Positions 21,282-22,321 of a DNA stretch of 23,022 nucleotides are shown in pieces. The notes below the pieces were generated by a model. That model searched no databases. It worked only from the letters and a program-made list of their open reading frames with translations, and was not told where the DNA came from. Location: NCBI GenBank assembly GCA_948612235.1, contig CAPFLK010000011.1, positions 1-23,022 of the forward strand. The letters are read 5' to 3'. Position numbers and translations under genes: made by a program. How positions within the stretch are numbered: the stretch's first letter is position 1; each line of letters begins with the position of its first letter. The DNA comes from an uncultured Lachnospiraceae bacterium. GTDB lineage: Bacteria; Bacillota; Clostridia; Lachnospirales; Lachnospiraceae.

Positions 21282-22321
21282 TTTTCTCCTATAAATAATT
21301 TTTCTATATATCTATCCATCTCATATCCCAATTTCACACAATTGCCATGTGATATATGATTTTTCCAAGCATTGTAACTCTCATAAAATTTCTCTTTGCT
21401 AAGTTTTCCACACCTCACTAATCCAACCATTTTCTTAAATTTCTTTTTAGCGGCACGTTTATTTTCGTTCTTCAGCTTTCGGATTACTTTACCACCTGAA
21501 GTCACATATGTATGAAAACCACAAAATTTGATTCCATTTTTAAAAGGAATGACCTGAGTCTTACTGTTTAATTCAAGACCTAATGAATACACAAACTCAT
21601 AAATAGCTGCTAAACACCATTTCGCATATTCTTTATTTGGCACTATCAAATAAAAATCATCCATATATCTACCATAGTATTTGACGCCGAGTTAACCAGT
21701 AATAAAGTGATCCAAACCTGATAAATATAGAAGTGCGAATACCTGACTGATCTGATTACCTAAAGGAAGTCCTAATCCCTCTGTACTATTAATAAACTTC
21801 TCACATAACCAATATACATCCTTATCTTCTATAAAATAACCCACAATAGCTTTCAAAATATTATGGTCAATATTATAAAAGAATTTACTTATATCAGCTT
21901 TTACAATCCAACAATCATATCCATATTTTTGATATGCAAGAAACATTTGCGCTCTCAAACAATCCAAACCATACAGTGTACCTTTACTAATCTGGCCAGC
22001 ATAATTCGTTTGAATAAATTCTTTATTAAATTTTGGAATCAATACATTATCACACAAACTATGCTGAATAATCTTATCTACAAATGAACACGACTTAATG
22101 ACCCTTTCTTTTGGTTCATATATTGTAAATTCATTATATTTAGATACTTGATATGTCTTTGTTTCTAATCTTCTTTTTATTTGGTGAATGCCATCAAGAG
22201 CAACTACTTGAAACTTCTGGCTACTTTTTGAGAATCCTTTACTTGACTTAGATTTTAAGTATGCTTGATACAAATTGCCGAAATCTATAATTTTTCCAAA
22301 ATCTGTTTTATCTTCTATCAT
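21278..22321 (-). CDS. DGR-type reverse transcriptase, about 347 codons, interrupted by a single in-frame TAA at 21692-21694.
   Basis: RT motifs 1-2 are present. The DGR-specific motif 4 LGLPLGNQISQ ([ILV]GxxxSQ, not QGxxxSP) is present. LSGLDHFITG-TAA-LGVKYYGRYMDDFYLIV aligns with BPP-1 bRT LDALDHHIKETLRVRGYVRYMDDFVLF. The two annotated ORFs (209 and 128 aa) are in the same frame, 27 nt apart. Confidence 0.8.

Follow-up and report, generated by a model that had tools for sequence, protein, structure and literature searches.

Does a single nonsense codon within the reverse transcriptase (RT) gene of a DGR silence the element, or can a full-length enzyme still be made? The locus that raises this question lies in a stretch of 23,022 nt, the whole of which was analysed and is called here the window. 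A first-pass annotation, made from the letters of the window, had left three options for this codon, namely a freshly inactivated DGR, a programmed readthrough or a base-call error, and had raised the prospect of on/off control of hypermutation.

An in-frame TAA codon splits the RT gene

On the plus strand the window reads TTA at positions 21692-21694, i.e., TAA on the minus strand, which is the coding strand of RT. Translation of the RT frame (window 21278-22321, minus strand) gives 209 codons, the TAA, and 137 further in-frame codons that end at a TGA; if the stop at codon 210 is read as sense, the gene amounts to 347 codons. The two ORFs of this region, 21692..22321 and 21278..21664, belong to this one frame, with 27 nt (LGVKYYGRY) separating the TAA from the ATG that opens the second ORF, whose 128-aa product starts at the M of YMDD. 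The Pfam model RVT_1 covers RT residues 71-270 in one stretch that spans the TAA (E 5e-14), and the stop falls after RT motif 4 (LPLGNQISQ) and before motif 5 (YYGRYMDD). The initial description, of a lone TAA that separates two ORFs of the same frame by 27 nt and splits the RT between motifs 4 and 5, was thus accurate.

The identification of the gene as a DGR RT was also correct. The protein matches PHROG 1423 (E 5e-105), and the signatures of the DGR clade can be read from its translation, with LGNQISQ as a motif 4 of the [LIV]GxxxSQ type and YMDD as the YxDD box. Its best match among solved structures is 8ub7_A (328 aa, E 7e-33; depositor name 'Reverse transcriptase'), which we take to be bRT of phage BPP-1. 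A functional DGR has an uninterrupted RT ORF; here, the TAA at codon 210 precedes YMDD. The first-pass annotation had placed the stop at an HIKET sequence of BPP-1 bRT, at a Glu/Thr-type position. The motif is wrong, since 8ub7_A reads ...LLHDELKQRHWARYMDD in this region, but the guess of a Glu was right, as the Glu of 8ub7_A aligns with the stop column.

Normal termination is expected to yield the 209-aa N-terminal part as the sole RT product, and the C-terminal part could be translated only by readthrough of the TAA. As a side effect, the base change that generated the stop (G to T) makes the palindrome GTTAAC, a HpaI/HincII-type site, at window positions 21690-21695. This is probably a coincidence; the phage encodes a C5 DNA methylase (16298-17635).

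TABLE 1 Features of the split RT gene and of the DGR cassette. Positions are those of the window unless a contig is named.
Feature	Position	Strand	Basis or remark
RT N-terminal part, 209 codons, motifs 1-4 including DGR-type LGNQISQ	21695..22321	-	Translation, RVT_1
Premature TAA, RT codon 210 (ancestral GAA, Glu)	21692..21694	-	Sequence, homologues, intact alleles
RT C-terminal part: motif 5 YMDD, motifs 6-7, thumb, TGA end	21278..21691	-	In frame after TAA
Small gene, 76-77 aa, overlaps RT stop	21048..21281	-	Travels with DGR cassette
Second SNP specific to the lineage: C in the window, T at all intact-RT loci	22352	-	TR-RT spacer, 31 nt upstream of RT start codon
TR, 82 nt, 22 adenines	22441..22522	-	TR/VR comparison
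avd accessory gene, 122 aa	22541..22909	-	PHROG 3206 'Avd protein of DGR', E 1.9e-17
3' part of ~143-nt post-VR repeat	22910..23022	-	Follows VR of both target genes
Target A, 255 aa, adjacent to avd	L001 8514-9281		Outside window
VR-A	L001 9181-9262		Outside window
VR-B	L002 3785-3865		Outside window

The stop codon is carried by one clone present in many samples

A single-base difference is the type of change that sequencing, base-calling or assembly errors produce, and the stop might have been such an error in an otherwise intact RT gene. The exact 209-aa truncated RT was, however, found in 76 index blocks and on 43 contigs of independent mouse-gut assemblies from ENA, JGI, Logan and NCBI, and the 128-aa downstream ORF on 51 contigs. 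Five of these sequences (L001-L005), each from a different sample (ERZ15142720, ERZ28663810/SAMEA3134397, JGI 3300035422, ERZ15035983 and SRR26560353), match the window with 99.9% identity over stretches of up to 11.3 kb, and the NCBI assembly GCA_948724865.1 likewise carries the split RT. The TAA is moreover always accompanied by a second SNP in the TR-RT spacer (Table 1): all 9 TAA loci carry C at this site and all 15 GAA loci carry T. With the same truncated product obtained in different projects, by different assemblers and from different archives, and with this linked SNP, the option of a base-call error is refuted, and an error of any kind has a negligible probability.

Because the linkage between the two sites is perfect, the TAA carriers represent one clone. 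The spacer belongs to the DGR RNA in BPP-1, and for this reason the second SNP may itself have a functional effect.

The stop arose recently from a GAA codon

The comparison with orthologous RTs that had been proposed as a check was carried out at two levels of divergence. At the closest, the intact RT genes of L007, L011, L012 and L014 differ from that of the window at 1 of 1,044 nt, with G rather than T at window position 21694. This intact allele (P0168; GAA, Glu210) was found on 26 contigs. Nearly as close is L006, which differs from the window RT by the nucleotide at 21694 plus P228Q; a cluster look-up gave P0123, an intact RT of 347 aa that differs solely by E210 and Q228, its contig differing at 3 of 1,317 nt. 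More distantly, the 120 best homologue clusters (78-92% identical, ~345 aa) are all uninterrupted, and the column of the stop holds Glu in 117 of them and Asp in the other 3, with TAA in 0/120. Among the three codons from which the TAA had been supposed to derive by a point mutation, GAA is thus supported by both the sister alleles and the homologue column, whereas CAA and AAA are not. Searches elsewhere gave no match by megablast in INPHARED and none by exact 30-mers in IMG/VR or in GTDB genomes; a scan of JGI metagenomes yielded one match, an 87.6%-identical relative with GAA. A query that started at the opposite window end brought up mosaic relatives only.

The C-terminal part of RT is identical to that of the intact alleles at the nucleotide level, and the number of synonymous differences between the TAA allele and its one-nucleotide sister alleles is zero. 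The nonsense event must therefore be extremely recent, as had been surmised from the conservation of the downstream peptide. Since no synonymous change has occurred since the mutation, the intact C-terminal half is uninformative on selection. An undamaged downstream half is expected for a young mutation and is also predicted by readthrough.

Possible routes to a full-length or active RT

Some gut phages are known to recode TAG or TGA, and an alternative genetic code in which TAA is a sense codon would restore the RT frame. The coding pattern argues strongly against such a reassignment. Among the 27 ORFs checked, 15 end in TAA, 8 in TGA and 4 in TAG, with further stops soon after the TAA ends, and Pfam models reach the C-termini of TAA-terminated genes, including those of the CCA-adding enzyme and the RNA ligase. 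The sole other long in-frame continuation, at the TAA in position 8406, was considered as a second gene interruption and rejected, as it is a normal boundary between the genes of the CCA-adding enzyme and a DHH/DHHA1 phosphoesterase. A tRNA scan of the window and of L001-L005, which cover ~32 kb of the ~55-kb phage genome, found no tRNA gene and hence no suppressor tRNA, and the sister allele has a plain GAA at the site. The initial view that code-wide reassignment of TAA is unlikely can be put more firmly, the probability of this reading being close to nil. Elsewhere in the window, the continuation after 20799 was looked at as a single gene, with no sign that it is one.

Leaky or programmed readthrough is a less extreme proposal, in which UAA would occasionally be decoded, for example as Gln, so that a low amount of full-length RT would leave the DGR attenuated rather than dead. 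The wholly intact ORF past the stop would fit, but with no synonymous change accumulated so far such intactness is uninformative. Positions 1353-1424 of L016, a contig of GCA_022797725.1 with an identical target B, encode tRNA-Gln(UUG), which is near-cognate to UAA; the other 11 of the 12 related loci scanned gave no suppressor tRNA, and the ~32 kb read of the TAA lineage has no tRNA. The phage also possesses tRNA/RNA repair genes (CCA-adding enzyme, RlaP and RNA ligase), but UAA is generally the least leaky bacterial stop and it is the codon with which most genes end here. The stop itself is followed by C, an unremarkable context; the 141 nt around and after it fold no better than shuffled sequences (z = +0.23), and a search of the window with Rfam matched no family. 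Because the intact allele has the same sequence around codon 210, no readthrough context evolved for this stop, which occurs in a single young clone and in none of its relatives (0/120 homologue clusters). With the context unchanged and neither a downstream structure nor a suppressor tRNA found, the option of a programmed readthrough loses its footing, and we regard occasional decoding of the UAA as unlikely.

Lastly, translation could reinitiate at the in-frame ATG 27 nt past the stop, with the two fragments assembling into an active enzyme. This ATG is preceded by a weak GGTAG, which does not amount to a good ribosome-binding site, and as it encodes the M of YMDD, the C-terminal fragment would lose the Tyr of the catalytic box and the split would lie inside the palm domain. 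A two-piece RT would also have had to emerge by a one-step accident in a sequence otherwise identical to the intact allele. We consider it highly improbable.

The remainder of the DGR is canonical and intact

Apart from the RT stop, the element is a canonical, intact DGR, with the order target, avd, TR, RT. In addition to its PHROG match (Table 1), Avd matches the NCBIfam model DivGenRetAVD with E 9e-07 and 29 bits, under the model's cutoff of 80. TR is identical in the TAA and GAA lineages, and its GC-rich 3' 14 nt (GGTGTCCGCCCGTT, 22441-22454) are the same in TR and both VRs. VR-A differs from TR by 14 mismatches, 14/14 at TR adenines, and VR-B by 19 mismatches at adenines and 1 elsewhere. 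The VR lies at the 3' end of the target gene, ending 19 nt before the target stop.

Target B, of 202 aa, is a remote paralogue of target A, and both match PHROG 9958, a family without functional annotation. Outside the VR, target A proteins are near-invariant, with a few single substitutions; within the VR they vary strongly. Variation of target B is likewise concentrated in the VR, its scaffold also showing some substitutions and an alternative N-terminal extension. The changes from TR in VR-A (L001 9181-9262) are A to G in 13 of 14 cases, and just 5 adenine sites differ between the VR-A of the TAA lineage and that of the intact L011 lineage. VR replacement that is biased or partial could account for this pattern, as could strong selection.

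A repeat of ~143 nt follows the VR of both targets. Because the window ends inside this post-VR repeat, the VRs and target genes lie beyond it, and a VR search inside the window found none. The repeat contains a 9-bp, GC-rich hairpin at 22950-22971 (GGCGAGGGC-GTAA-GCCCTTGCC) and is probably the target-recognition element. It is common to the loci of adjacent target A and remote target B (L001 9132-9405; L017 3879-4152), and contigs L003 and L005, like the window, end at it. Several assemblies show cross-joins at the repeat, from target B to avd in L002 and L015 and from target A to a 98-aa/HicB region in L034 and L049. Such joins reflect either forks of the assembly or genuine recombination.

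The small gene that overlaps the RT stop (Table 1) has no family match in Pfam, NCBIfam or PHROG. Together with target A, avd, TR and RT it forms a cassette of ~2.86 kb that is 99.1-99.4% identical across phage backbones, with TR identical in all (L001 8442-11301 compared with L007, L011, L012 and L014); the backbones differ on both sides, and the cassette moves as a module. One backbone that carries it has an IS605 OrfB/Cas12f-like TnpB nearby. On a contig from SRR33517200, target A is joined to sequence downstream of TR in a hybrid ORF of 293 aa (P0146, L052 2633-3514) that resembles the outcome of a VR-TR recombination deleting avd and that adjoins an intact RT. This ORF may mark another, independent route by which the cassette is disabled, or an assembly collapse.

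The window also holds, between 1984 and 14803 on the minus strand, cargo that is unusual for a phage-like region. One set of genes encodes an ABC transporter, with a permease, an ATPase and an NMT1-type binding protein to which an OmpA domain is fused, and another forms a cluster for RNA repair, with RNA ligase, DHH phosphoesterase, CCA-adding enzyme and RlaP. The cargo also includes PspA/IM30 and a protein of 814 aa that has the shoulder and repeat domains of the Major Vault Protein.

Variable regions in the TAA and GAA lineages

All TAA contigs that reach the adjacent target carry one VR-A variant, P0138, and all P0138 contigs that reach RT have the split gene (L033 plus 8 similar places, L035 and L037). 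Other VR-A variants accompany intact genes: P0140 and P0141 adjoin the RT that differs by one nucleotide, and P0142 adjoins a 345-aa RT. The single VR of the TAA clone supports a frozen DGR without proving it. Because each intact-RT lineage also holds a single VR, over 17-24 contigs, VR constancy in assemblies does not discriminate inactivity, and assemblies alone cannot separate DGR inactivity from low activity. A further target A variant, P0147, has the same VR and one substitution outside it; its contig shows the join of target A to HicB and ends short of RT.

A model for the loss of RT function

The change of GAA to TAA at this locus is genuine and recent, and in our estimate the probability is about 0.8 that it disables an otherwise canonical phage DGR. 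A G-to-T transversion converted Glu210 of a canonical RT into an ochre stop, very recently in evolutionary terms, and the mutation is fixed in one clonal lineage of a mouse-gut phage that has spread through many samples. Translation would end after motif 4 and give a product devoid of the YMDD catalytic box, motifs 6-7 and the thumb. Such a truncated RT should be unable to make cDNA; mutagenic retrohoming would stop, and both variable regions would be frozen at their last state. What is established about RT biochemistry, together with the absence of a readthrough feature, leads us to infer that RT activity is lost; the DGR is taken to be inactive mainly because the truncated product lacks YMDD and the thumb.

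Of the three options left at first pass, the evidence thus favours the freshly inactivated DGR. The idea of on/off control of hypermutation is not supported: the TAA does not lie in switch-prone sequence, and it is found in one clone, linked to a second SNP. The change is a loss of function in one direction rather than a switch that regulates the element. It is conceivable, though improbable, that selection favoured the nonsense allele because it 'freezes' a receptor-binding variant that has proved successful, or that rare UAA readthrough keeps an attenuated DGR alive, with mutator-on (GAA) and mutator-off (TAA) forms co-circulating as a balanced polymorphism.

If the loss-of-function reading is right, the two alleles are of modest practical use. 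Both occur in public mouse-gut data, one nucleotide apart, with TAA on 43 contigs and GAA on 26, in cassettes that otherwise share TR, Avd and the target scaffolds, and the pair would provide a natural RT-knockout control for DGR activity in vivo. There is also a lesson for annotation: pipelines would list this DGR RT as two ORFs, a 'retron-type RT' and a hypothetical protein, and a clean-looking TR/VR pair is no ground for assuming that a DGR is active.

Comparison with known systems

The element resembles the DGR of Bordetella phage BPP-1 (bRT, Avd, TR, and VR in mtd) in its order of target, avd, TR and RT, in the presence of Avd, in an RT with the [LIV]GxxxSQ motif 4 and YMDD, in TR/VR mismatches at adenines (here with one exception, in VR-B), in the GC-rich identical 3' end and in the post-VR hairpin. 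It differs from it in that the RT is cut by a nonsense codon, that a remote target exists in addition to the adjacent one, and that both belong to PHROG 9958 rather than being Mtd. The phage host, too, is different, being probably a mouse-gut Lachnospiraceae as judged from homologue names.

As in gut phages that recode TAG or TGA, an in-frame stop lies within an essential domain of a gut phage gene. Unlike in those phages, the codon is a single TAA, and ORFs of the window end in TAA more often than in TAG or TGA; the tRNA scan of ~32 kb gave no suppressor, and GAA stands at this site in relatives.

The closest parallels are other DGRs with damaged RT genes. DGR RTs are commonly inactivated by premature stops, and such cases are on record (PMC3521204; PMC5758913). 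RTs truncated by a nonsense codon, as in Ruminococcus gnavus ATCC 29149, by a frameshift or by an IS insertion were reported by Schillinger et al. (2012, PMC3521204, Fig. 4A), with TR/VR pairs that had kept only A mutations; this was read as very recent inactivation, with sequencing error not ruled out. Nonsense-inactivated RTs with intact TR/VR were also found by Wu et al. (2018, PMC5758913). The present locus shares with these DGRs the premature RT stop and TR/VR mismatches that are still essentially adenine-only. What is new here, and unlike those cases, is that an intact sister allele, one nucleotide away, is found in the same habitat, so that error can be excluded and the event dated as extremely young.
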